The notes beneath the pieces were generated by a model, which saw only the letters and a list, made by a program, of their open reading frames with translations, ran no database searches and was not told the DNA's origin. DNA of 64,000 nt from Chloroflexota bacterium (GTDB taxonomy: Bacteria > Chloroflexota > Anaerolineae > Anaerolineales > VGOW01): positions 14,217 to 78,216 of the forward strand of contig JACPWC010000071.1 in the NCBI GenBank assembly GCA_016197225.1, written 5' to 3'. Below are positions 48,652-60,327 of this stretch, piece after piece. Positions within the stretch are counted from its first letter, which is position 1. The number at the start of each line of letters is the position of its first letter. A program made the position numbers and the translations under genes.

Positions 48652-49790
48652 ATGCTAATTTCGACCGCCCTTTTGCCGATTTGCCATCGGCGCTTGTTGA
48701 CGAAGTGCTACAGCGCACTCAGGAAGTGGGAAAAGCCCTTCTGGACTCATTCCATGAATTGCAATCACAGAAGGCCGCCCGCCGCAATCAACTGACAGAC
48801 TCAAAGCTATTGGGCCGCGAATCTGATTTTGAGTATGGCATCATCCCGACAACTTGTGGAATAGATGGAGCATTTGCCATTGAGCGATTATTGGCTATTG
48901 ACTTGATAGCGGTGGCAGCGGTTGCTATGGAGGGACTGACCCCGCCGTCAGAAAACCGTTTCTGGCCTGAACCGCGCCATCAGGTTTTGATTGAAACCGA
49001 GTCGCACGACCCCGACACCGGAACAATAGCGAGAGCCTTGATGATGGGGATGGAGTTAAGCCTAGCCGTACAAGCCCCTCATGAAGTTGTTTTTCTTGAT
49101 GGGTCGCTGACCACTCCAATCATCTTCTTCAATCAAGCACTGAACAAAATACAGGAAGCAGAACATTTGAAAACTTCGCAGGAGTTTCTGGCCCGTGCGA
49201 AGGACATTTTGGAAGCCTATCAGGCAATACTCAAAGCGCACCGTTCCGACAAGTATTGGGTGGCTATCCCTAAATACACTACTCGTCGTGAAATAGGAGA
49301 AATATCGCAGTGGCCAGAGTCACAAGATGACCGTTCTATTTTGACTGGCATCCTAGAGCCAGGAGAAATTACCCAACCAGTTGAGTTGAAAAAGCCTGAA
49401 AAGCCTTGGCATTTGAATACTAACCCTATTAAGGCCAAGGGTGTGGCGGAACTCGCCGACGACATCACAAATCGCTTGTATGAAATTCAGGTGGTGTATT
49501 ACCGGCCATATCCTTGGTTGCCTGCTTTGCGCCTTGAAATGAGTCGCGCGGTTGCCAAAACCCCCGCTAGACTTGCAAGCGTGTTACATGCTATCAAACA
49601 TCAATGCGGCGCACCCGCAATGATGGAACCTTACCCGCTTTATATGGCTGACCGTATGGTTAAGTCGCTTGCAACAGCCATCCCAACGTTTAGACAAATT
49701 ACAAGCCAGCACATGGCCGAGGCATATCAAGGCGATGTCGCAGATATATTCCTTGGGCTTCACGGATATCGAACTGAAACAGGTAGATGA
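48648..49790 (+). CDS. nurA: NurA-like nuclease
   Basis: GIDGAF (Asp73) and VVFLDGSLTTP (Asp151) match the NurA catalytic DG/DGSL motifs. ATGA overlaps occur at both gene boundaries. Confidence 0.65.
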   Translation: MNANFDRPFADLPSALVDEVLQRTQEVGKALLDSFHELQSQKAARRNQLTDSKLLGRESDFEYGIIPTTCGIDGAFAIERLLAIDLIAVAAVAMEGLTPPSENRFWPEPRHQVLIETESHDPDTGTIARALMMGMELSLAVQAPHEVVFLDGSLTTPIIFFNQALNKIQEAEHLKTSQEFLARAKDILEAYQAILKAHRSDKYWVAIPKYTTRREIGEISQWPESQDDRSILTGILEPGEITQPVELKKPEKPWHLNTNPIKAKGVAELADDITNRLYEIQVVYYRPYPWLPALRLEMSRAVAKTPARLASVLHAIKHQCGAPAMMEPYPLYMADRMVKSLATAIPTFRQITSQHMAEAYQGDVADIFLGLHGYRTETGR

Positions 49791-51622
49791 CTATGACACA
49801 CGATACTTCTAGCCACGTTGACAAACTGATAGACCAGTCTGAGCGAATCGGAGTTATAGGTTCGCCATCTTCAACGAATGAGTTGGCCCTAGACATTATG
49901 GGCGGGGCAGTCAGCAAAAAACTCGTTGGTGAGTTGGCTTTATTGCGGTATCTGCAAGATAACAGTCCTCACTATGCCCTCGGCCAAATCACCGAAGTGA
50001 CGTTGCGAAACGTGTGGCACGAAGACCCTACGATGCGGAGTCTCATTAGGCAACGCGGGCGTATTGACGCTGTTAGCGAACGCCAAGACACCCATCAAGG
50101 CGAAATGCTCATCAGTGCTGTGTTTGCCGGAGGAGCCAATGGTTATAGGCCAAGCATTCTTGGCACAGTTCCAGCCACCGGAACGCCCATTCATTTAGTT
50201 GATGATGGCGTACTCAATGAACTGCTATCACCTTATCGACAGCAGTTGTTTTACCTCGGCAAGGTATACGGTTCTACTCCCAACCTGCCCTTATGGTTTA
50301 AGCATTTTGACACAGGGCCAGATGGAGCAGGCGAGGCCTATCACCTCGGCATCTTCGGCAAGACTGGCTCAGGCAAATCAGTTTTGGCGAAAATGATATT
50401 GCTGGCCTATGCGCGTTATCCAAAGATGGCTATGCTGGTCATTGACCCGCAGGGAGAATTTGCAAAGGAAGCCAAAGGCGAGTCGGTGCTTGGGCAATTC
50501 ACTTTACCGACTAAAACCGTACTCAATCAACTCAACAAGTCAACCCAAGTTTACAGCGTCCGCGACCTTATACTCGACCGATGGGAACTCTTTGAGCAAA
50601 TACTTACTGAGTCGCGATTCTTTCGAGAACTTCAAATTATGACTCGCGACAAGGCGGAGTTAGCGTCCGGCCAACTCATTTTGGAAATGCAGAAGGCCAA
50701 GTTAACTCTGGCGAAGTTGCATGAGCGAAGCAGCTTTGACCGCGCTTGGGCATTACTAAAACAGGATAAGGTGCAGAACAAAATCTATGCAAAGGAAGGA
50801 GCAGCGGCTGAGAGATTCGCTGAAGCTATACAAGAAGCCGACCCTGATGAGATATATCGAACAATCTGGCTACCTGTTGCTCAACTTTTCAGGGAAGACC
50901 GAAAGAGTGCGCGGAAAGTTGAAGCCCTTTTGCGCGGCTTATTTGACCCAGAGAAAGACCGCCGTCCTCTTGTAGTAATTGACCTGTCAATTGAGCAGGC
51001 TATATCGCTGGGTGGTAGTAGCAGTTTAGGGCCATTGTTTAACGAAGAAGCGCAATCCGAGCAATCCGTAGAGGTGCTGTGGAACGAGACAATCCAGGCT
51101 TTGGTGATTAAGCGTCTGCTGGAGGGTATTCGCAGAACCGCTGAAGAAGCCTACAAACAGAACCGAAGTCTCAATACACTTGTCTTGATAGATGAAGCAC
51201 ACCGACTCGCCCCACGCGAAGAACCTGAAAATGACCAGAAAAAAAGCGTTAGGGGCATATTGATTGACGCAGCCCGAACCACGCGCAAGTATGGCGTGGG
51301 CTGGATGTTCATAAGTCAAACCTTGTCTAGTCTGCATCGGGAGATTCTGGAACAATTGCGTATTTTTTTCTTTGGCTTTGGGTTGGGCATGGGGTCAGAG
51401 TTCAAGGCCCTCAGCGAGTTAGTTGGCGGGCGAAGCAAAGCCCTTGACCTGTATCAATTATTCCGCGACCCTCACTCATCGTTTGATACATCATCGCGAG
51501 AATATTCATTCATGACGATTGGGCCAGTATCGCCTTTGTCCTTTTCGGGAACGCCTTTATTCCTGAGCAGTTTCAATAAGTCAGACGACTTTTTGAAGGC
51601 GAATGGCTTGGATAAGCCATAG
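49787..51622 (+). CDS. herA: HerA/DUF87-family hexameric ATPase (FtsK-HerA superfamily)
   Basis: N-terminal barrel-like region (IGVIGSPSSTNELALDI...ALGQITEV), Walker A GIFGKTGSGKS, Walker B LVLIDEAHRLAP, and RKYGVGWMFISQTLSSL. Confidence 0.8.
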   Translation: MTMTHDTSSHVDKLIDQSERIGVIGSPSSTNELALDIMGGAVSKKLVGELALLRYLQDNSPHYALGQITEVTLRNVWHEDPTMRSLIRQRGRIDAVSERQDTHQGEMLISAVFAGGANGYRPSILGTVPATGTPIHLVDDGVLNELLSPYRQQLFYLGKVYGSTPNLPLWFKHFDTGPDGAGEAYHLGIFGKTGSGKSVLAKMILLAYARYPKMAMLVIDPQGEFAKEAKGESVLGQFTLPTKTVLNQLNKSTQVYSVRDLILDRWELFEQILTESRFFRELQIMTRDKAELASGQLILEMQKAKLTLAKLHERSSFDRAWALLKQDKVQNKIYAKEGAAAERFAEAIQEADPDEIYRTIWLPVAQLFREDRKSARKVEALLRGLFDPEKDRRPLVVIDLSIEQAISLGGSSSLGPLFNEEAQSEQSVEVLWNETIQALVIKRLLEGIRRTAEEAYKQNRSLNTLVLIDEAHRLAPREEPENDQKKSVRGILIDAARTTRKYGVGWMFISQTLSSLHREILEQLRIFFFGFGLGMGSEFKALSELVGGRSKALDLYQLFRDPHSSFDTSSREYSFMTIGPVSPLSFSGTPLFLSSFNKSDDFLKANGLDKP

Positions 51623-51906: not shown

Positions 51907-52536
51907 GTGAACATGCAAGCCACCCCACCCTCCATTTGGGATGTGTATCAGGAAGGGAGCCGTTTCTTTATGAAGGAAGGCGATGTCTACGAAACGCTTC
52001 GCGCCCTGGCAACCCGGTTGAGGGAAGAGGGGCTGGAGTACGCGCTGATCGGCGGCCTGGCCCTGGCGGCGCACGGCTACCGCCGTTTCACCGAAGACGT
52101 GGACATTCTGATGACGCCTGAGACATTGCGCCTTTTCAAGGAGAAATTTGTCGGGTTGGGGTATTTGCCGGCCTTTGCCACCGCCTCAAAATCTTTCCGC
52201 GACACGCGCACCGGCGTCAAGGTCGAAGTGATGACGACCGGTGAGTATCCGGGCGACGGCAAACCGAAACCGGTGGCGTTTCCTGATCCGGTTTTGGCCC
52301 GCGTGGAGCGGGACGGCTTGTGGGTTTTGGCGTTGGAGAAGCTCGTCGAACTCAAGCTGGCTTCCGGCCTCTCGGCCTCCCACCGGCTCAAAGACCTGGC
52401 CGACGTTCAGGAATTGATCGCCATCTTGAAACTGCCGCTGGAGTTGGCCGGGCAGTTGGATGCCAGCGTCCGCGCCGAGTATCAACGGCTCTGGCAGGGC
52501 GCGCAAACCGCCCCGCCTGAGGAAGGGATGTCATAG
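51907..52536 (+). CDS. nucleotidyltransferase-fold protein (minimal NTase, GG...DxD)
   Basis: YALIGGLALAAHGYRRFTEDVDILM matches the G[GS]-x(9-13)-DxD minimal nucleotidyltransferase signature. The start is GTG 51907 or ATG 51913. Confidence 0.6.
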   Translation: MNMQATPPSIWDVYQEGSRFFMKEGDVYETLRALATRLREEGLEYALIGGLALAAHGYRRFTEDVDILMTPETLRLFKEKFVGLGYLPAFATASKSFRDTRTGVKVEVMTTGEYPGDGKPKPVAFPDPVLARVERDGLWVLALEKLVELKLASGLSASHRLKDLADVQELIAILKLPLELAGQLDASVRAEYQRLWQGAQTAPPEEGMS

Positions 52537-52726: not shown

Positions 52727-54715
52727 ATGAAAAAAGTATTGACAACACTGTTAGCGCTGGTCACCCTGCTGGTGGCCTGCAGTGGCGGCAAGCCGGCCGC
52801 CACCCCGGCCACGAGCGGCCTGCCCGCCGACGCGGCGGCCATTGCCGCCGCCCGTGGCCTGACCCAGGACGACATCGCTGCCGCCCTCAAGACCTACACC
52901 CCCTCCGGCCAGCTCGACCCCTACATCATGTTCGCTTCGGGCGGGCAGGGCGGCCAGGTGCTGGCCATTGGCGTGCCGTCCATGCGCATCCTCAAGCTCA
53001 TCGGCGTTTTCACCCCCGAACCCTGGCAAGGCTACGGTTTCGGCGGGTCGAGCGACAAGGTCATCGAGGGCGGCTACATGCCGAACGGCGATGAACTCAA
53101 GTGGGGCGACACTCATCACCCCAACCTGTCGGAGACCAAAGGTGAGTACGACGGGCAGTTCCTCTTCATCAACGACAAGGCCAACGCCCGCCTGGCGGTG
53201 ATTGACCTGCGCGACTTCGAGACCAAGCAGATCATCAAAAACCCCAACGCCATCAACGACCACGGCGGCGCGTTCGTCACCCCCAACACCGAGTACGTCA
53301 TCGAAGGCCCGCAATATGCCGCCCCGCTCGGCTTTGAGTATGCGCCCATTGACGAGTATCAGAACAAGTATCGCGGCCTGATCACCTTCTGGAAATTTGA
53401 CCGGGCCAAGGGCCGGGTGGACGAATCCCAGTCCTTCCAGATTGAACTGCCGCCCTACTGGCAAGACCTGTGCGACGCCGGCAAAGGCGTGAGCGAGGGC
53501 TGGTTCTTCTGCAACTCGTTCAACACCGAATTGGCCACCGGCGGCGTGGAACTGGGCAACCCGGCCTTCGAGGCCGGCACGACCAAGAACGACGTGGACT
53601 ATCTGCACATCGTGGACTGGAAGAAGGCCGAGCAGGTCTTCAAGGGCGGGGACGTAGAAAAGCTGAACGGGATCGCCGTCATCAGCATGGAGACCGCCAT
53701 CAAGGAAAACATCCTCTACTTCGCCCCCGAGCCGAAGAGTCCGCACGGCGCGGACGTGACCCCCGGCGGCGAGTTCATCGTCGTCGGCGGCAAGCTCGAC
53801 CCGCACGTGACGATCTACTCCTTCGACAAGATCAAGGCCGCCATCGAAGCCGGCGGTTTGGAGACCGACTCCTACGGCGTCCCCGTCATCCCGCTCGACA
53901 AGGTGATGGAAGCCCAGGTTGAACTCGGCCTCGGCCCGCTTCACACCGTCTACGACGACAAGGGTTACGCCTACACCTCGCTCTTCCTGGACTCGGCGGT
54001 GGCCCGCTGGACTCTCGGCGGCCCGTACGCCGACAAGCACCCTGAAGAACCGTGGACGCTCGTCCAGAAACTGCCCGTGCAATACAACATCGGCCACATC
54101 GCGGCGGCAGAAGGCGACACCGCCTCGCCCGATGGCGGCTACGTAGTGGCCCTCAACAAGTGGAGCATTGACCGCTTCGCCAACGTCGGGCCGCTCCTGC
54201 CGCAAAACTTCCAACTGGTGGACATCGCCCAGACCGGCGATCAGATGAAAGTGATCTACGACATGCCCATCGGCATGGCCGAGCCGCACTACGCTCAGAT
54301 CATCAAGGCCGACAAACTGCACCCATTCGAGGTCTACCCCGAAATTGGTTGGAACCCGGAGACGATGAGCGTTGACCCGAACGCCATCACCGACGCGGCC
54401 CAGGCCCGGGTGGAACGCAACGGCAACAACGTTGAAATCTGGACGGCAGTCGTGCGGTCTCACTACACGCCAGAGCACGTTGAAGTCAACAAAGGTGATC
54501 ACGTGGTCTGGCACTTCACCAGCCTTGAGCGCCAGCGCGACGCGACACACGGCTTTGGCCTCTCCGGCTACAACATTAATCTCAGCCTTGAGCCAGGCGA
54601 AGCACAGACCATTGAGTTCGACGCCAACAAGGCCGGCACCTTCACCTTCTACTGCACCGAGTTCTGCTCGGCCCTGCATCTGGAGATGATCGGGTACTTC
54701 TTAGTCAAACCGTAA
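52727..54715 (+). CDS. nosZ: nitrous-oxide reductase, Sec/lipoprotein-type (clade II-like)
   Basis: The C-terminal CuA site is FYCTEFCSALHLEMIGYF. Seven-bladed-propeller His-rich blocks are present (e.g. GDTHHP, NDHGGAF). The N-terminus MKKVLTTLLALVTLLVACSGG carries a lipobox and no twin-arginine motif. Confidence 0.9.
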   Translation: MKKVLTTLLALVTLLVACSGGKPAATPATSGLPADAAAIAAARGLTQDDIAAALKTYTPSGQLDPYIMFASGGQGGQVLAIGVPSMRILKLIGVFTPEPWQGYGFGGSSDKVIEGGYMPNGDELKWGDTHHPNLSETKGEYDGQFLFINDKANARLAVIDLRDFETKQIIKNPNAINDHGGAFVTPNTEYVIEGPQYAAPLGFEYAPIDEYQNKYRGLITFWKFDRAKGRVDESQSFQIELPPYWQDLCDAGKGVSEGWFFCNSFNTELATGGVELGNPAFEAGTTKNDVDYLHIVDWKKAEQVFKGGDVEKLNGIAVISMETAIKENILYFAPEPKSPHGADVTPGGEFIVVGGKLDPHVTIYSFDKIKAAIEAGGLETDSYGVPVIPLDKVMEAQVELGLGPLHTVYDDKGYAYTSLFLDSAVARWTLGGPYADKHPEEPWTLVQKLPVQYNIGHIAAAEGDTASPDGGYVVALNKWSIDRFANVGPLLPQNFQLVDIAQTGDQMKVIYDMPIGMAEPHYAQIIKADKLHPFEVYPEIGWNPETMSVDPNAITDAAQARVERNGNNVEIWTAVVRSHYTPEHVEVNKGDHVVWHFTSLERQRDATHGFGLSGYNINLSLEPGEAQTIEFDANKAGTFTFYCTEFCSALHLEMIGYFLVKP

Positions 54716-54806: not shown

Positions 54807-55499
54807 ATGAAGCAGTTCTTCTCCCTCGACCCCGACGTCAAAGTCCTCCTCCCCGACGGCAGTACCCGCCGCCTGACGGATTATCTTTTCCCCAGCGCCC
54901 TGCTCATGCTGGCCGCGTTGATGCTGATGATCTCGATGTTCCTGCCCTACTGGAGCATGACGATGACAGCCCCGCAGTATCCCAAAGGCCTGAAGGTGGA
55001 TGTGTACGTCAATCATCTCGAGGGCGACATGCGCGAGATTGACGAACTCAATCACTACCTGGGCCTGCCGCCGCTCGACGAGGGCGGCCAGTTTGAACGC
55101 TCGATCTCCATTTTCTCGATTGTGGCCCTCGGCCTGCTGTTGATCGCCGGAGTGTTCATTCACAATCAATGGGCCGGCGTGCTGGCCCTGCCCGTCCTCG
55201 GTTTCCCCGTCGTCTTCGTGGCCGACCTCTGGTACATCCTTTATCACTACGGTCACAGCATTGACCCCGACTCGGCGCTGGGCGACGCTATCCAGCCTTT
55301 CACCCCGCCCATCATCGGCATTGGCAAAGTCGCCCAGTTCGGCACTGTCGCCAATTTCACCGCCGGCTTCTACCTGGCGATTGCCGCCATCGTCGTGATG
55401 CTCGTCGGCCTGTGGTTCCACCGCGCCGCCTACAAACCGATTGTGGACGCCCGCAAGAAAGTGGGCAGTGATCAGTTGCCAGTTATCAGTAATTCGTGA
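54807..55499 (+). CDS. integral membrane protein in the nosB position of clade II nos clusters
   Basis: 230 aa with four or more hydrophobic helices, located directly between nosZ and nosD. The family assignment rests on position only. Confidence 0.5.
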   Translation: MKQFFSLDPDVKVLLPDGSTRRLTDYLFPSALLMLAALMLMISMFLPYWSMTMTAPQYPKGLKVDVYVNHLEGDMREIDELNHYLGLPPLDEGGQFERSISIFSIVALGLLLIAGVFIHNQWAGVLALPVLGFPVVFVADLWYILYHYGHSIDPDSALGDAIQPFTPPIIGIGKVAQFGTVANFTAGFYLAIAAIVVMLVGLWFHRAAYKPIVDARKKVGSDQLPVISNS

Positions 55500-55518: not shown

Positions 55519-57906
55519 ATGAAACTGTCTATGCCGGGAATCATGGGGGTCGTGTTGGCAATATTGCTTGGCGCGTTGCCAACTACAGCGGCTCCGTCTG
55601 CCACTGATCACTCTTCACTGTTCACTGATCACTTGATTGTTTCCCCCTCCGGCCCCTACACCACCATTGAAGCCGCCCTGGCCGACGCCGGCGACGGCGA
55701 CACCGTCGAAGTTCACGGCGGCGCGTACCCGGCACTCGTGATCGCAAAATCGGTGACGCTGGTTGGGGTGGATTGGCCGGTGATTGACGGCGGCGGACAG
55801 GGCACGGTCGTCATGCTCAACGCGCCCGGCATCGTCTTCAAAGGGTTCCATGTGCGCGGCAGCGGCGTCGAGCCGGATCGCGACCACGCCGGCATCACCC
55901 TCACCGCGCCGGATATCACGGTTGAAGGCAATCGTTTGAGCGACGTGCTCTTTGGCGTCTTCGTCGAGCAGGCCGACGGGGCTGTGGTGCGCGGCAACGA
56001 CATTGCCAGCAAAGCCCAGTACGACTCGGGCCGCAAAGGCGACGGCATTCGGGTCTGGTACAGCAAGGATGTCATCGTCGAAGGCAACCACGTTCACGAC
56101 GCCCGCGACGTGGTGTTGTGGTACGCCGAAAACATCGTCGTGCGCGACAACCTCATCGAAGGCGGGCGCTACGGCCTGCATCTGATGTACTGCAACAACT
56201 CGCAGGTGGAAGGCAACCGGGTGCTGAACAACTCGGTGGGCGTTTACACCATGTACTCCAGCAACGTGATCCTGCGCGACAACGACATTCGCGGCCAGCG
56301 CGGGCCGAGCGGTTACGCCCTCGGCTTCAAAGACGCCGACTTTGTCGAAGTGACCGGCAACGTGGTGGTGGACAACCGCGCCGGAATTTTCGTGGACGGC
56401 ACGCCATTCAACCCCCAAAGCTGGGGCCGCTTCACCGACAACATTTTCGCCTTCAACGACGTGGGGGCGATCCTGCTCACTGCCGTGCGCGGCAACACGT
56501 TTGAGAACAACACCTTCTGGGAGAACGTGGAACAGGTTGCACAGCAGGGCGGTGGCCACCCCGGCGAAAATGTCTGGCGGGGCAACTACTGGAGCGATTA
56601 TGCCGGTTTCGACGTTGACGGCGACAACCTGGGCGAGTCGCCTTACACCTCCGAACGTTTCTTTGAAAGCCTGACCGATCGCGAGCCGATGTTGCGCGCT
56701 CTCATCTACAGCCCGGCGGCGCAAACCATCGAGTTCGCCGCGTCCTCATTTCCCATTATCAAGCCCCAACCCAAATTAGTGGATGAGTCGCCGCGCCTGC
56801 AACCCGCAATCATTCCGGCCTCGGCCATCGCCCCGAAGAAACCGGCCCTGCCCATGACTCTGCTGGGGGTCGCTATATTTGCCGTTGGCATCCTGTTCGG
56901 CGCTTTGGCTTTTATGAACCGCAAAGAAAACACAAAAGGGCATCACCCTATGGCAACTCAAACCCCACCCGAAACCGCTGTGCGCGTTGAGGGCCTGATC
57001 AAACGCTACGGCAAGACGGCGGCCCTGAACGGCGTTTCGTTCACGGCCCGCCCCGGCGAGGCGCTGGCCCTGTGGGGCGAAAACGGCGCCGGCAAGACTA
57101 CCCTAATCAAAGCCCTGCTCGGCCTCATCGAGTTTGAAGGCGACGTTTCCATTCAGGGCTGTGATGTGCGTCGGAACGGCAAGGCCGCCCGCCGCAACAT
57201 CGGCTACGTGCCACAAGAGGCGATCTTTTATGATATGACCGTTCAGGCGACGATGGAGTTTTATGCCCGGTTGAAAGAAAGAAAAGAGATGAGAGATGAG
57301 AGATTGGAGATTGAGCAATCTCTCGTCTCTCATCTCTCATCTCCCATAGAACGTATTCCGGCCTTGCTCGAACGCCTCGGCCTGAGCGAGCACGCTCGTA
57401 AACCCGTGCCCGCCCTCTCCGGCGGCCTCAAGCAACGGCTGGCGCTGGCGGTGGCTCTGCTGTCCGACCCGCCCGTGCTTCTGCTCGACGAGCCGACGGC
57501 CAACCTCGACGCTAAAGCGCGGCGCGACTACCTGGCTCTGTTGGGGACGCTTCGCAAAGAGAAGAAGACCATCATCTTCGCCTCGCACCGCATCGAAGAA
57601 GTGGAAACGCTGGCCGACCGGGTGGTCGTCATGGAGGCCGGTCGGGTGGTTGAGACGCTCAACCCCGGCGAAGTCCGTTTGCGGCTCGCGCCGGATGTTG
57701 AACTCACCCTGTGGGTCGCCGATGGCGAACGTCCCCGCGCCCTGGCCTGCTTTGAGAGCAACGGCCTCAACGCTCACCTTAACGGGCGCGGAACCGTCGT
57801 CGTCCGTGTAGACCCGCAAAACAAATTGCAACCCCTGAGCCTGCTGGCCGAGCAGGGCATCTCGGTGCTGGACTTTGAAGTGGAGCGAGGCCGTTTGTGG
57901 AATTGA
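55519..57906 (+). CDS. nosD/nosF: apparent NosD - TM helix - NosF fusion (periplasmic beta-helix copper-insertion protein fused to the ABC ATPase)
   Basis: The signal peptide is MKLSMPGIMGVVLAILLGALPTTAAP. Parallel-beta-helix repeats follow (GNRLSDVLFGVFV, GNHVHDARDVVLWY, GNRVLNNSVGVYT, GNVVVDNRAGIFV). The TM helix is LPMTLLGVAIFAVGILFGALAFM. ABC motifs are GENGAGKTT, LSGGLKQRL and LLLDEPTANLD. No stop codon separates the two parts. Confidence 0.75.
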   Translation: MKLSMPGIMGVVLAILLGALPTTAAPSATDHSSLFTDHLIVSPSGPYTTIEAALADAGDGDTVEVHGGAYPALVIAKSVTLVGVDWPVIDGGGQGTVVMLNAPGIVFKGFHVRGSGVEPDRDHAGITLTAPDITVEGNRLSDVLFGVFVEQADGAVVRGNDIASKAQYDSGRKGDGIRVWYSKDVIVEGNHVHDARDVVLWYAENIVVRDNLIEGGRYGLHLMYCNNSQVEGNRVLNNSVGVYTMYSSNVILRDNDIRGQRGPSGYALGFKDADFVEVTGNVVVDNRAGIFVDGTPFNPQSWGRFTDNIFAFNDVGAILLTAVRGNTFENNTFWENVEQVAQQGGGHPGENVWRGNYWSDYAGFDVDGDNLGESPYTSERFFESLTDREPMLRALIYSPAAQTIEFAASSFPIIKPQPKLVDESPRLQPAIIPASAIAPKKPALPMTLLGVAIFAVGILFGALAFMNRKENTKGHHPMATQTPPETAVRVEGLIKRYGKTAALNGVSFTARPGEALALWGENGAGKTTLIKALLGLIEFEGDVSIQGCDVRRNGKAARRNIGYVPQEAIFYDMTVQATMEFYARLKERKEMRDERLEIEQSLVSHLSSPIERIPALLERLGLSEHARKPVPALSGGLKQRLALAVALLSDPPVLLLDEPTANLDAKARRDYLALLGTLRKEKKTIIFASHRIEEVETLADRVVVMEAGRVVETLNPGEVRLRLAPDVELTLWVADGERPRALACFESNGLNAHLNGRGTVVVRVDPQNKLQPLSLLAEQGISVLDFEVERGRLWN
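57286..57343. repeat. 28-nt imperfect inverted repeat (GAGATGA/GGAGATT heptamers) embedded in frame in the NosF ATPase region
   Basis: The arms gagatgagagatgagagattggagattg (57286-57313) and caatctctcgtctctcatctctcatctc (57316-57343) are complementary at 25/28 by hand alignment. They encode EMRDERLEIEQSLVSHLSS. Confidence 0.85.
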
Positions 57907-57975
57907 GGGGACGCAGATGAACGCAGATGAACACAGATTTGGAATCACGATCCGTGTGCATCGGTGAAAATCCGT
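57905..57975. repeat. CGCAGATGAA-type repeat element
   Basis: gaggggacgcagatgaacgcagatgaacacagatttggaatcacgatccgtgtgcatcggtgaaaatccgtgcc. It is related to the CGCAGAT arrays at 40850-40918. Confidence 0.6.
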
Positions 57976-57985
57976 GCCTGAAAAA

Positions 57986-58813
57986 ATGGAATTGACACTG
58001 CTCTGGACGATTGCTCAACGTGAACTGCGCGAGAGCTTGCGCAACAAGTGGCTGGCCTTTTACGCCGTCGGTTTTGCGGCGCTGGCCTTTGCCCTCTCGC
58101 AAGCCAGCCAGGCCTCCGCCGGCTATAGCGGCCTCGGCGGCTTTGGTCGCACCGCCGCCAGCCTCGTCAACGCCCTCCTGCTCTTCGTGCCACTGCTCGG
58201 CCTCAGCGTGGGCGCGGGCGCGCTGGCCGGAGATCGCGAACGGGGAACCTTGATGTACCTGCTGGCCCAGCCGGTGAATCGCGCCGAAGTATTCTTTGGC
58301 AAAGCATTAGGGGCCGGGTTGGCCGTCACTGCCGCCCTGGCCGTCGGCTTCGGGTTGGCGGCCATTGCCCTGTCGTCAACCGGCGACGGCGACCCCTCAG
58401 TCTTTCTCGCCCTCACCGGCTACACCGTCCTGCTGGCGCTGGCCTCGCTGGGCTTCGGCTTCGTCATCAGCGCCCTCACTCGCAAAAGCGCAACAGCCGT
58501 CGGCGCTTCGCTGTTACTGTGGCTGGGGCTGGTCTTCTTCGGCGACCTGAGTGTGGTGGGCGCAACCCTGACTCTGCGCCCAACCCCGGCCATGCTCCTC
58601 AGCATGTTGCTCGTTAACCCTCTGCAAGCCTTCAAGCTGGGCGCGATCTACAGTCTGCGAGCCACGCTCGACACGCTGGGCGCGGCCGGCCAATATGCCA
58701 CGTACCGCTTCGGCGAAAGCCTGCCCTTCCTGCTCGCCGGCCTGCTTCTTGCCTGGATCGTTCTCTCATTCGGCATTGCCTTTGCCACCTTCAGCCGTCG
58801 AGGCGACTTATGA
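57986..58813 (+). CDS. nosY: ABC-2-type permease NosY
   Basis: Six predicted TM helices and a position after the nosF module. The N-terminus ELTLLWTIAQRELRESLRNKW is typical of ABC-2 permeases. GTG 57974 is an alternative start. Confidence 0.8.
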   Translation: MELTLLWTIAQRELRESLRNKWLAFYAVGFAALAFALSQASQASAGYSGLGGFGRTAASLVNALLLFVPLLGLSVGAGALAGDRERGTLMYLLAQPVNRAEVFFGKALGAGLAVTAALAVGFGLAAIALSSTGDGDPSVFLALTGYTVLLALASLGFGFVISALTRKSATAVGASLLLWLGLVFFGDLSVVGATLTLRPTPAMLLSMLLVNPLQAFKLGAIYSLRATLDTLGAAGQYATYRFGESLPFLLAGLLLAWIVLSFGIAFATFSRRGDL

Positions 58814-59328
58814 AGACTGATTTTCAAGTGTCAAATGTCATAAATAACTTGTCACATTTGACGTTTGATCTTTCACGCCTCCCACTGTACTTTTTGCTGA
58901 TGGGCCTTTTGCTTTCCGCCTGTAGCTCCAATTCCAACGAACCCCAACCGCCGGAAATTCTTTACGGCCAGGACCTGTGCGACGCCTGCGGCATGATCAT
59001 TGACGACGCCCGCTTTGCCGCCGCCACCCTGCTCACCAGCGGCGAGTTCCGCAAATTCGACGAGATTGGCGACATGATGATTTATCACATGGAGCACCCG
59101 GAAGAACAGGTGCAGGCCTATTTCGTCCACGACTACAAATCTGAAGCGTGGATTCGCGGCGAGACGGCGTTCTTTGTGGAAGGCGATATCACGACTCCGA
59201 TGGGCGGCAGTATCGTCGCCTTTGAAGATCAAACCGAGGCCAAAGCTTTCGCCGCAGAAGTGAATGGCAAAGTATTCACCCTCTACGACTTGCGTGTGGA
59301 AGCTCACCTGGCCGTGCATGGAGGATAA
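58810..59328 (+). CDS. nosL: NosL copper-chaperone lipoprotein (copy 1)
   Basis: Lipobox LLSACSS, CDACGMIIDDARFAA, and FDEIGDM are NosL signatures. Confidence 0.8.
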   Translation: MKTDFQVSNVINNLSHLTFDLSRLPLYFLLMGLLLSACSSNSNEPQPPEILYGQDLCDACGMIIDDARFAAATLLTSGEFRKFDEIGDMMIYHMEHPEEQVQAYFVHDYKSEAWIRGETAFFVEGDITTPMGGSIVAFEDQTEAKAFAAEVNGKVFTLYDLRVEAHLAVHGG

Positions 59329-59337
59329 GGACTGAAA

Positions 59338-59904
59338 ATGTATCGTTGGATATGCGTCTTATTGCTTGCCGGAAGTCTGCTCACCGCCTGCGGCGGCGGG
59401 GCCGCCGCCACCCCTACAGTGGAGCCGCCGACGGCCACCCCGTTGCCGCCCACGCCCACGTCGCCGCCGCCCACCGCCACCGCCGAGCCGGCAACGCCGC
59501 CGGAGATCAACTACGGCCACGACTTCTGCGACGAGTGCAACATGATCATCGGCTACGACAAGTTCGCCGCCGCCACCATTCTCACCAGCGGCGACTCGCA
59601 CAAGTTCGACGAAGTCTCAAACATGCTCTTCTATCACCTCAAGCATCCCGACGAGCAAGTGCGGGCCTGGTTCGTTCACGACTACGCCAGCAAGACGTGG
59701 ATCAGAGGCGAAACGGCCTTCTACGTGCAAGGCGCCGCGATCATCACCCCGATGAACGACGGCATCATCGCCTTCGAGCAGGAGGCCGACGCTCAGGAAT
59801 ATGCCGTCACCAAGAACGGCGACGTCTTCACCTTTGAAGAAATCCAACTTGTTGCTCAACAACTATTGCAGGCCAAAGAAGCCACTGCCTCGCCTGCGCC
59901 CTAA
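59338..59904 (+). CDS. nosL: NosL copper-chaperone lipoprotein (copy 2, with a Pro/Thr-rich linker)
   Basis: Lipobox LLTACGGG, a PT-rich spacer, CDECNMIIGYDKFAA, and FDEVSNM. Confidence 0.8.
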   Translation: MYRWICVLLLAGSLLTACGGGAAATPTVEPPTATPLPPTPTSPPPTATAEPATPPEINYGHDFCDECNMIIGYDKFAAATILTSGDSHKFDEVSNMLFYHLKHPDEQVRAWFVHDYASKTWIRGETAFYVQGAAIITPMNDGIIAFEQEADAQEYAVTKNGDVFTFEEIQLVAQQLLQAKEATASPAP

Positions 59905-59934: not shown

Positions 59935-60327
59935 ATGAAAGTTCGACTACTCACCATTTTTTCTCTGCTTCTCGCAGGCGCCTTGATCATCGCCGCCTGT
60001 GGCGGCGGCGGCCCGGCGGCCACCCCCACGCCCGAAGGCCCCGCCGGCGACGCCGTGGCCGGCAAAGCCAAGTTCGAAACCACCTGCACCACCTGTCACG
60101 GCCCGGATGCTAAAGGCCTGCCCGGCCTCGGCAAAGACCTGACGGCCAGCGAGTTTGCCAAAGGCCTTTCGAATCAGGAATTGGTTGACTTCCTGCTGGT
60201 TGGCCGCCCGGCGAGCGACCCGCTCAACACCACCGGCGTTGACATGCCGCCCAGAGGCGGCAACCCGGCCTTCACCGATCAAGACCTGGTTGACATCATG
60301 ACTTACATTCGCACCTTGCAACAGTAA
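59935..60327 (+). CDS. monohaem c-type cytochrome lipoprotein
   Basis: Lipobox IIAACGGG, a single CTTCHG haem motif and a distal Met region (VDMPPRGG). Confidence 0.8.
   Translation: MKVRLLTIFSLLLAGALIIAACGGGGPAATPTPEGPAGDAVAGKAKFETTCTTCHGPDAKGLPGLGKDLTASEFAKGLSNQELVDFLLVGRPASDPLNTTGVDMPPRGGNPAFTDQDLVDIMTYIRTLQQ

Follow-up and report, generated by a model that had tools for sequence, protein, structure and literature searches.

Are NosD and NosF, two accessory proteins of nitrous-oxide reductase that are separate polypeptides in the characterized complex, made as one chain in some bacteria, and what would such a chain mean for copper delivery to the enzyme? The question is raised by nosDF, a single open reading frame (ORF) in a 64,000-nucleotide (nt) stretch of DNA from a metagenome-assembled genome (MAG) of a Chloroflexota bacterium (Anaerolineales; assembly GCA_016197225.1, contig JACPWC010000071.1, positions 14,217 to 78,216 of the forward strand), referred to here as the window. 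The original prediction, made from the letters of this stretch, read the frame as a natural fusion of NosD, a transmembrane (TM) helix and the ATP-binding cassette (ABC) ATPase NosF. Domain matches, a conserved TM helix and independent assemblies all agree with that proposal, and we conclude, with a probability of roughly 0.85, that nosDF is a genuine gene fusion and that the nos cluster of this Chloroflexota MAG to which it belongs is of clade II.

NosD, a membrane helix and NosF in a single frame

The nosDF frame runs without a stop from the ATG at 55519 to the stop codon at 57904-57906 and specifies 795 amino acids (aa). The ATG is a sensible start because the upstream gene ends at 55499, and an identical 795-aa protein with the same start is present at NCBI (P0001, 'MAG: NosD [Chloroflexi bacterium]'). 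Along this one chain lie, in order, a predicted signal peptide, a NosD beta-helix, a TM helix, a disordered basic linker, and a NosF ATPase with its R-domain. An AlphaFold2 model of the whole chain, built with 89 sequences, has a mean predicted local distance difference test (pLDDT) score of 89.1.

The N-terminus is by eye a hydrophobic, signal-like segment, which is modelled as a helix (aa 7-17) followed by a low-confidence stretch. Pfam places NosD/Beta_helix matches at aa 125-363 (PF05048, E = 6.5e-41), and the NCBIfam NosD profile TIGR04247 matches aa 50-427 over its positions 1-376 of 377 with a score of 372 bits, above the cut-off of 300. A phmmer alignment with P. stutzeri (Pseudomonas stutzeri) NosD (7o0y_A, E = 2.8e-28) covers residues 68-420 of the 436 in that chain. 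The pLDDT exceeds 90 for the NosD domain, and the core residues H221, M223 and M245 are invariant in the 89 sequences. Foldseek searches with the whole model were dominated by ABC domains, and the NosD half was identified by its sequence. No second NosD is encoded within the 64-kb window.

The C-terminal half matches Pfam ABC_tran (PF00005) at aa 503-661 (E = 1.2e-30) and has all of the catalytic elements intact: Walker A (GENGAGKTT, aa 520-528, nt 57076-57102), Q-loop, signature (LSGGLKQRL, aa 633-641, nt 57415-57441), Walker B (LLLDEPT, aa 654-660, nt 57478-57498) and H-loop, with residues K526, Q566, S634-G636, D657, E658 and H690 invariant across 89 homologues. It matches P. stutzeri NosF (7o0y_B) in sequence with E = 3.3e-31 and, by Foldseek, over 312 aligned columns with a TM-score of 0.79 on the target; the C-terminal domain, modelled confidently as an alpha/beta fold, is part of this alignment. 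The half shares 67% identity with the separately encoded NosF of L086, a syntenic cluster in which nosD and nosF are split, and no further NosF-like ABC ATPase was found within the window.

Between the two domains lies the hydrophobic helix LPMTLLGVAIFAVGILFGALAFM, at aa 443-465 by sequence and aa 444-466 (nt 56848-56916) in the model. It lies beyond the canonical NosD C-terminus, since the 7o0y_A alignment already reaches residue 420 of that chain; P. stutzeri NosD ends about 16 residues past the aligned region without a TM helix, whereas the window NosD continues into one. The best 19-residue Kyte-Doolittle hydrophobicity at the helix position is 1.59-2.58 in all 111 fused homologues compared (111/111), and the mean net charge of the 15 residues flanking the helix is +2.3 after it and +0.35 before it, a bias that fits the positive-inside pattern expected if NosD is outside and NosF inside. 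The linker that follows has a pLDDT below 50 at aa 467-483; among the same 111 proteins it varies in length from 16 to 102 aa (median 30) and is unconserved in sequence, and it is always in frame. Among the aligned homologues the helix keeps its position and hydrophobicity, and conservation is high in both the NosD and the NosF part.

The architecture thus agrees closely with the original prediction, which had named the NosD parallel beta-helix, a hydrophobic helix near nt 56850-56920, a complete ABC ATPase with the three motifs quoted above, and a topology of periplasmic NosD, one TM pass and cytoplasmic NosF. The NosD identity is upheld by the TIGR04247 score and the 7o0y_A alignment, the ATPase by motifs that are all present and invariant, and the topology by a helix with positive-inside flanks in every fused homologue. 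Its statement that NosD, NosF and NosY are separate polypeptides in the characterized complex holds for the solved P. stutzeri complex. The frame from ATG 55519 is uninterrupted as stated, with the correction that the chain has 795 residues, the predicted 796 having counted the stop codon. Two of the checks that it had suggested, a search of orthologous clusters for the same fusion and a structure prediction, gave respectively at least 120 clusters, described next, and a model in which the two domains are connected by a confidently predicted TM helix and a linker that is disordered.

Fused homologues are numerous and independently assembled

A search of 5.8 billion proteins yielded at least 120 full-length clusters, counted at 90% identity, that contain both domains and are 57-91% identical. 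These fused homologues are about 730-900 aa long, mostly 760-830, and those that are named come from Chloroflexi, Anaerolineae or Anaerolineales MAGs. Because so many full-length homologues have both domains, the continuous frame is neither a product of chance nor a sequencing error. One of them, P0111, occurs on 15 contigs, among which are an NCBI MAG and a Logan assembly made independently; P0111 and a second fused protein, P0022, are encoded in the same gene order, nosZ-nosB-nosDF-nosY-nosL-cytochrome c, without a separate nosF. Four 90%-identity clusters have the common junction KG[DH]HPM[AT]TQ.

A profile search also returned a 1006-aa protein with NosD and ABC_tran domains from a Planctomycetes MAG (P0295), and the fusion is therefore not confined to Chloroflexota. 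Two Phycisphaerae NosD matches from that profile search (P0312 and P0315) are unfused.

Fused and split forms interleave

The NosD half was searched exhaustively with HMMER against 1.84 billion representatives at 50% identity, and the nearest 150 clusters were classified by Pfam and BLASTP. NosD and NosF are joined in one chain in 51 of the 150: 40 are NosD-NosF, 10 are NosB-NosD-NosF, and one (P0175, 1290 aa, 11 member sequences) is NosB-NosD-NosF-NosY. A further 17 are NosB-NosD, 48 are stand-alone NosDs with a C-terminal TM helix, 23 are stand-alone NosDs without one, and 11 are C-terminally truncated and unclassified. The best match is itself a stand-alone NosD (P0121, 495 aa, 71% identity in that search), which lies on contig L086. 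This locus has the same cluster as the window, but with nosD and nosF as separate genes; its NosD and that of the window share 75% identity by BLASTP and 76% in the trimmed alignment, and the two NosZ proteins share 81%. The 495-aa protein is present in three assemblies and carries the TM helix followed by a 28-aa cytoplasmic tail, and the nosD TGA overlaps the nosF ATG (ccATGAaa).

A metagenome scan with a NosD-specific sub-alignment added 80 more loci, which were classified by BLASTP of stop-to-stop ORFs. All NosDs at least about 37% identical to that of the window have a TM helix at the C-terminus with basic residues after it, and most of those below about 33% identity end a few residues past the domain without such a helix. 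Within the TM-bearing clade, nosD and nosF are fused in 11 loci as well as the window, L108 encodes a D-F-Y chain, L085 a B-D-F-Y chain and L104 a B-D chain, and about 20 loci are split, with the order D-F-Y without exception. The split clusters (L086, L088 and others) share the cluster and the TM-anchored NosD with the window; unlike the window, they keep nosD and nosF apart by an ATGA stop/start overlap and a stronger Shine-Dalgarno match. In the neighbour-joining NosD tree the fused and split forms interleave, and parsimony gives 7-9 state changes in 100 of 100 bootstrap trees. Four sister pairs each join a fused and a split locus: the window and L086 (bootstrap 96), L105 and L101 (100), L090 and L095 (97), and L089 and L088 (89). 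The cluster counts and the trees indicate that the NosD-NosF fusion is common rather than a one-off event and has been gained or lost repeatedly.

The close relatives point to an ancestral state in which NosD would have carried a TM anchor and a short basic cytoplasmic tail, with the nosF ATG overlapping the nosD stop codon; loss of the ATGA overlap would then have joined both frames. The anchor is the prerequisite for such a joining: the topology permits it solely because an anchored NosD has its C-terminus on the cytoplasmic side, the side on which NosF acts. With a cytoplasmic C-terminus and an overlapping nosF start, read-through fusions are topologically harmless and have arisen, or been undone, many times, and the split and fused states appear to be nearly interchangeable in evolution.

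A conventional split clade II cluster, nosZ-nosB-nosD-nosF-nosY, is present in a Gemmatimonadaceae MAG (L002:5539-7916). Its nosD encodes no TM helix at the C-terminus, yet ends in a stop codon that overlaps the start of nosF (ATGA), from which it follows that the overlapping junction is older than the membrane anchor.

NosB-NosD fusions are also widespread, and occur in L085:2278-6150 (P0175), L104, P0127, P0131, P0132, P0138, P0151 and others; member sequences of the P0175 NosB-NosD-NosF-NosY chain come from several assemblies. The function of NosB is unsettled, and these NosB-NosD(-NosF-NosY) chains connect it with the ABC machine for copper delivery.

Alternative readings of the fused frame

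The alternative that survives best accepts the fused frame and holds that internal initiation at Met478 yields free NosF besides the fused chain, or even as the main product, such that one NosD-NosF chain would pair with one free NosF and restore D1F2Y2, an assembly with one NosD and two NosF. The original prediction had raised free NosF from an ATG near 56950. That ATG exists (56950-56952), and it lies exactly at the ancestral nosF start: Met478, within MATQTPPETAVRVEGLIKRYG, precedes K495, the lysine of the KRYG motif, by 17 residues, and the start Met of the separate L086 NosF, which begins MKTNSQTNPMMCVDHVSKRYG, has the same 17-residue spacing to the K of KRYG, which identifies Met478 as the old start codon. 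Of the 111 fused homologues, 61 have a Met 6-25 residues ahead of KRYG, as compared to 27% expected, with a peak at -17, and the known complex has two NosF per NosD. The initiation signal itself is poor, however. The AAAGGG upstream of the ATG offers Shine-Dalgarno pairing of only -3.1 kcal/mol, whereas the nosF starts of split relatives mostly fall between -5.8 and -10.4 kcal/mol, two of them being weaker. Moreover, there is no ATG 6-25 codons before KRYG in six of the 13 fused loci for which DNA is available, the zone has no Met in 45% of the fused proteins, internal starts could not restore the ratio in the NosD-F-Y and NosB-D-F-Y chains, and an enrichment of Met is also expected as a relic of recent, repeated fusions. 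The Met478 region appears to fit a decaying relic of such fusions better than a conserved second start. A conserved internal start was rejected on the weak Shine-Dalgarno pairing in the window and the absence of the ATG from about half of the fused genes; a minor free-NosF product may nonetheless be made in this organism. On balance, we regard this internal-initiation reading as improbable.

Considerably less probable is cleavage of a fused precursor after membrane insertion, in the linker or the TM helix, which would free NosD and NosF and leave the fusion to serve co-expression and targeting only. The linker is disordered and exposed, and the ease with which split and fused forms swap in evolution makes the covalent link seem dispensable. 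The hypervariable linker has no conserved cleavage motif, though, the cluster contains no protease gene, and with the topology already right there is no need for cleavage.

An assembly or sequencing artefact, by which a stop codon would have been missed or a 1-nt indel introduced where nosD and nosF overlap, deserves mention given that the window derives from a MAG and that the ancestral junction is a 4-nt overlap at which one indel would join the frames. It is excluded for practical purposes by the fused clusters, which reach down to 57% identity with in-frame linkers differing widely in length and sequence, by identical fused proteins from independent samples and assemblers, and by the junction common to four 90%-identity clusters.

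That the C-terminal half is an unrelated ABC ATPase joined to NosD by chance was rejected: ABC ATPases are hard to distinguish, and eukaryotic ABCA proteins outscore NosF in a PDB sequence search, but this domain resembles the separate NosF of L086 too closely (67% identity), lies directly upstream of nosY as the sole ABC ATPase of cluster and window, and follows the P. stutzeri NosF fold through its C-terminal domain, so that the idea has next to no likelihood.

Several considerations nevertheless weigh against taking the frame as a fusion that operates as such. The full-length chain of about 88 kDa is a prediction from the gene sequence; GHHPMATQTPPETAVR, a tryptic peptide of the fused chain, would span the NosD/NosF join. 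The enrichment of Met at the old nosF start could mean that some lineages have retained internal initiation. The trees were built by neighbour joining on about 370 columns from metagenome contigs of unknown taxonomy, and they leave the direction of change, fusion or fission, unpolarised. Finally, to square a 1:1 fusion with a D1F2 complex, there would have to be a second NosD that is not docked, or NosF from elsewhere.

Stoichiometry and a proposed mechanism

This last point bears on the mechanism. PDB entries for the P. stutzeri complex hold 16 NosD chains in 16 entries and 30 NosF chains in 15 entries, and in 7o0y chain A is NosD and chains B and C are both NosF; the D1F2 ratio is drawn from these chain counts and identities. 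With one NosD per two NosF in the PDB complex, the fusion would impose a D:F ratio other than the characterized one. The original prediction that a covalent link would fix the stoichiometry is thus right in that the encoded ratio is fixed, but it is fixed at 1:1 and not at the characterized 1:2. Its suggestion that the fusion supplies a genetic argument for physical coupling of NosD and NosF has been superseded, as NosDFY complexes have already been solved.

Several assemblies could accommodate the ratio. Two NosD domains may be present for each F2Y2 core and dock alternately, one of them remaining undocked by virtue of the long floppy linker; the assembly may be symmetric; or free NosF may be supplied by some other route. 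Since D, F and Y also occur joined in D-F-Y and B-D-F-Y single chains, a 1:1:1 arrangement is probably workable.

The sequence and the model together suggest how the product would work. The predicted Sec-type signal peptide would export the copper-handling NosD beta-helix to the outside, the fused chain would cross the membrane once, and a floppy linker of 16-102 aa would tie NosD to the NosF ATPase. NosF would dimerise on the NosY permease encoded next. By homology with P. stutzeri NosDFY(L), ATP binding and hydrolysis in NosF would drive a conformational change through NosY, and NosD would then take Cu(I) from NosL and hand it to apo-NosZ, such that its presumed role is to act on copper in NosZ maturation. 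Chloroflexota are increasingly considered monoderm. The sequence gives no sign of new chemistry, the catalytic ATPase residues and the NosD core being kept; what the tether would add is that both domains are translated and located together and that the D:F ratio is fixed at 1:1. The most likely benefits of the fusion are co-translational assembly and membrane retention.

A bolder proposal, which we consider doubtful though worth stating, is that the NosZ-maturation machine of this large and mostly uncultured clade is built differently from that of P. stutzeri: each NosF would bring a tethered NosD, in a symmetric D2F2Y2 complex with alternating sites or with the extra TM helix as a mechanical link between ATPase and NosD, and the recurrent NosB-NosD, NosB-D-F and NosB-D-F-Y chains would point to NosB as a stoichiometric part. 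If this were true, NosB would belong to the copper-delivery machine rather than being an electron-transfer component.

The nos cluster of the window

The gene order around nosDF is that of a clade II cluster, nosZ-nosB-nosDF-nosY-nosL-nosL-cytochrome c (Table 1). NosZ scores 842.7 bits with TIGR04246 (cut-off 625) and 403.6 bits with the profile of the twin-arginine translocation (Tat) type, TIGR04244, which is below the cut-off of the latter. The nosB-like protein has no Pfam or NCBIfam match; it shares 71-73% identity with its positional counterparts in L081, L083 and L086 and is homologous to the same-position ORF of the Gemmatimonadaceae locus L002. The NosB motifs have been given as LNHYIGM and YGHN (PMC9697520). 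Position is likewise conserved for nosY in L081, L083 and L086. A 67-nt gap (57907-57973) separates the nosDF stop from the nosY GTG start in the window; the two genes overlap in L083, where nosY begins before nosDF has ended (10376 vs 10385). The tandem nosL copies are 55% identical to each other over 121 aa, and L081, L083 and L086 have a single nosL; the c-type cytochrome gene is also found in these three loci. Neither nosR nor nosX is among the ORFs scanned at 49.8-62.8 kb.

Immediately upstream of nosZ are a 611-aa HerA/DUF87-type ATPase (49787-51622) and a 209-aa protein (51907-52536) with weak NTP_transf_5 and AbiEii matches, both below the Pfam cut-offs; together they may form a defence or toxin-antitoxin module unrelated to nos. 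A 642-aa ORF antisense to nearly all of nosZ (52751-54679, reverse strand) is most likely a shadow ORF of 60% GC sequence and not a gene.

Table 1. Coordinates of the nos genes in the window and of the parts of the nosDF product
Feature	Coordinates	Strand	Basis
nosZ, Sec-dependent (clade II) nitrous-oxide reductase	52727..54715	+	TIGR04246; Pfam nos_propeller and cupredoxin
nosB-like polytopic membrane protein, 230 aa, separate gene	54807..55499	+	motifs LNHYLGL, YGHS
nosDF fusion ORF	55519..57906	+	frame, Pfam, NCBIfam, homologues
nosDF: predicted N-terminal signal peptide, about aa 1-25, MKLSMPGIMGVVLAILLGALPTTAA	55519..55593	+	read from sequence
nosDF: NosD domain, right-handed beta-helix aa 38-355 and C-terminal helices aa 381-410, ending at conserved PQPKLVD	55630..56808	+	
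nosDF: single TM helix, aa 444-466	56848..56916	+	AlphaFold2, Kyte-Doolittle
nosDF: cytoplasmic linker, aa 467-487, NRKENTKGHHPMATQTPPETA	56917..56979	+	disordered, hypervariable
nosDF: Met478 codon, apparent relic of ancestral nosF start	56950..56952	+	position compared with L086
nosDF: NosF nucleotide-binding domain, aa 488-723	56980..57687	+	ABC_tran, 7o0y_B match
nosDF: NosF C-terminal domain, aa 727-789 (R-domain per PDB entry titles)	57697..57885	+	AlphaFold2, Foldseek
nosY, ABC-2 type permease	57974..58813	+	ABC2_membrane_2, E = 2.8e-29
nosL copy 1, copper chaperone	58810..59328	+	Pfam NosL, E = 2e-19
nosL copy 2, tandem paralogue	59338..59904	+	Pfam NosL, E = 1.2e-18
c-type cytochrome, conserved last gene of the cluster	59935..60327	+	Pfam Cytochrom_C

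Relation to known systems

Structures of the P. stutzeri NosDFY(L) copper-site assembly machinery were reportedly described by Mueller et al. in Nature in 2022 (PDB 7o0y, 7osf and related entries). The window encodes the same three protein families in the same order, D-F-Y, with the NosL and NosZ partners alongside; the systems differ in that D, F and Y are separate polypeptides in P. stutzeri and D and F form a single ORF here, and in that the P. stutzeri system is clade I and Tat-dependent, whereas the window NosZ is of the Sec type.

Membrane anchoring of NosD has precedents. A C-terminal TM helix was predicted for the NosD of Bacillus azotoformans (PMC3475470), and the NosDs of the monoderm bacteria B. 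azotoformans and Geobacillus thermodenitrificans have a predicted C-terminal anchor like those of the clade around the window. In these Bacillota clusters, however, nosD is followed by nosY or nosL and not by nosF, and no D-F fusion was reported there (PMC3475470). NosB-NosL fusion proteins are known from the Bacteroidota Dyadobacter fermentans and Flavobacterium azooxidireducens (PMC9697520), where adjacent nos accessory genes have likewise merged to encode one membrane protein, but the partners are B and L rather than D and F.

Other ABC transporters offer a looser parallel. GlnPQ and OpuA, with covalently tethered extracytoplasmic binding domains, and MacB-type chains, which combine a cytoplasmic nucleotide-binding domain with a periplasmic domain, have an outside working domain and the transporter core on one chain, so that each dimeric transporter has two or more outside domains that need not all dock at once. 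The outside domain of those systems is joined to the permease or inserted between the TM helices of the permease, whereas in nosDF a dedicated extra TM helix joins it to the ATPase and the NosY permease is usually separate.

We found no described NosD-NosF fusion in the open-access full-text literature, although absence there is not proof of absence. The N2O reductase system of Thermoflexus hugenholtzii JAD2, a cultured Chloroflexota isolate, has been given as a full nosZDYL set (PMC8129789). IMG gene identifiers are listed there for nosD, Y, L and Z (2413742816-18 and 2143742820; the prefixes differ in print, probably through a typing error), but nosF has no identifier, which suggests that a D-F fusion may have been overlooked and that a cultured carrier may exist. 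Annotation pipelines label the fused proteins just 'NosD', and surveys can thus wrongly score nosF as missing.

Significance

No biological sink for the greenhouse gas N2O is known other than N2O reductase, whose copper centres need NosDFY. Among the abundant consumers of N2O are clade II organisms like the Chloroflexota considered here, whose maturation machinery is not known to have been studied. The significance of the fusion is tempered by the facts that fusions of operon neighbours are common, that both domains are well known, and that D-F-Y coupling is structurally proven. The fusion is nonetheless real, widespread and evolutionarily labile, and the roles of its parts are assumed to be unchanged. 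The natural NosD-TM-NosF and NosB-D-F-Y chains are ready-made constructs for expression and cryo-electron microscopy, and the single chains directly challenge the generality of the model of one NosD per transporter. The mechanistic interest of these chains lies mainly in the D:F ratio and in NosB, for which the NosB-containing chains provide a 'Rosetta stone' link to the copper-delivery complex.

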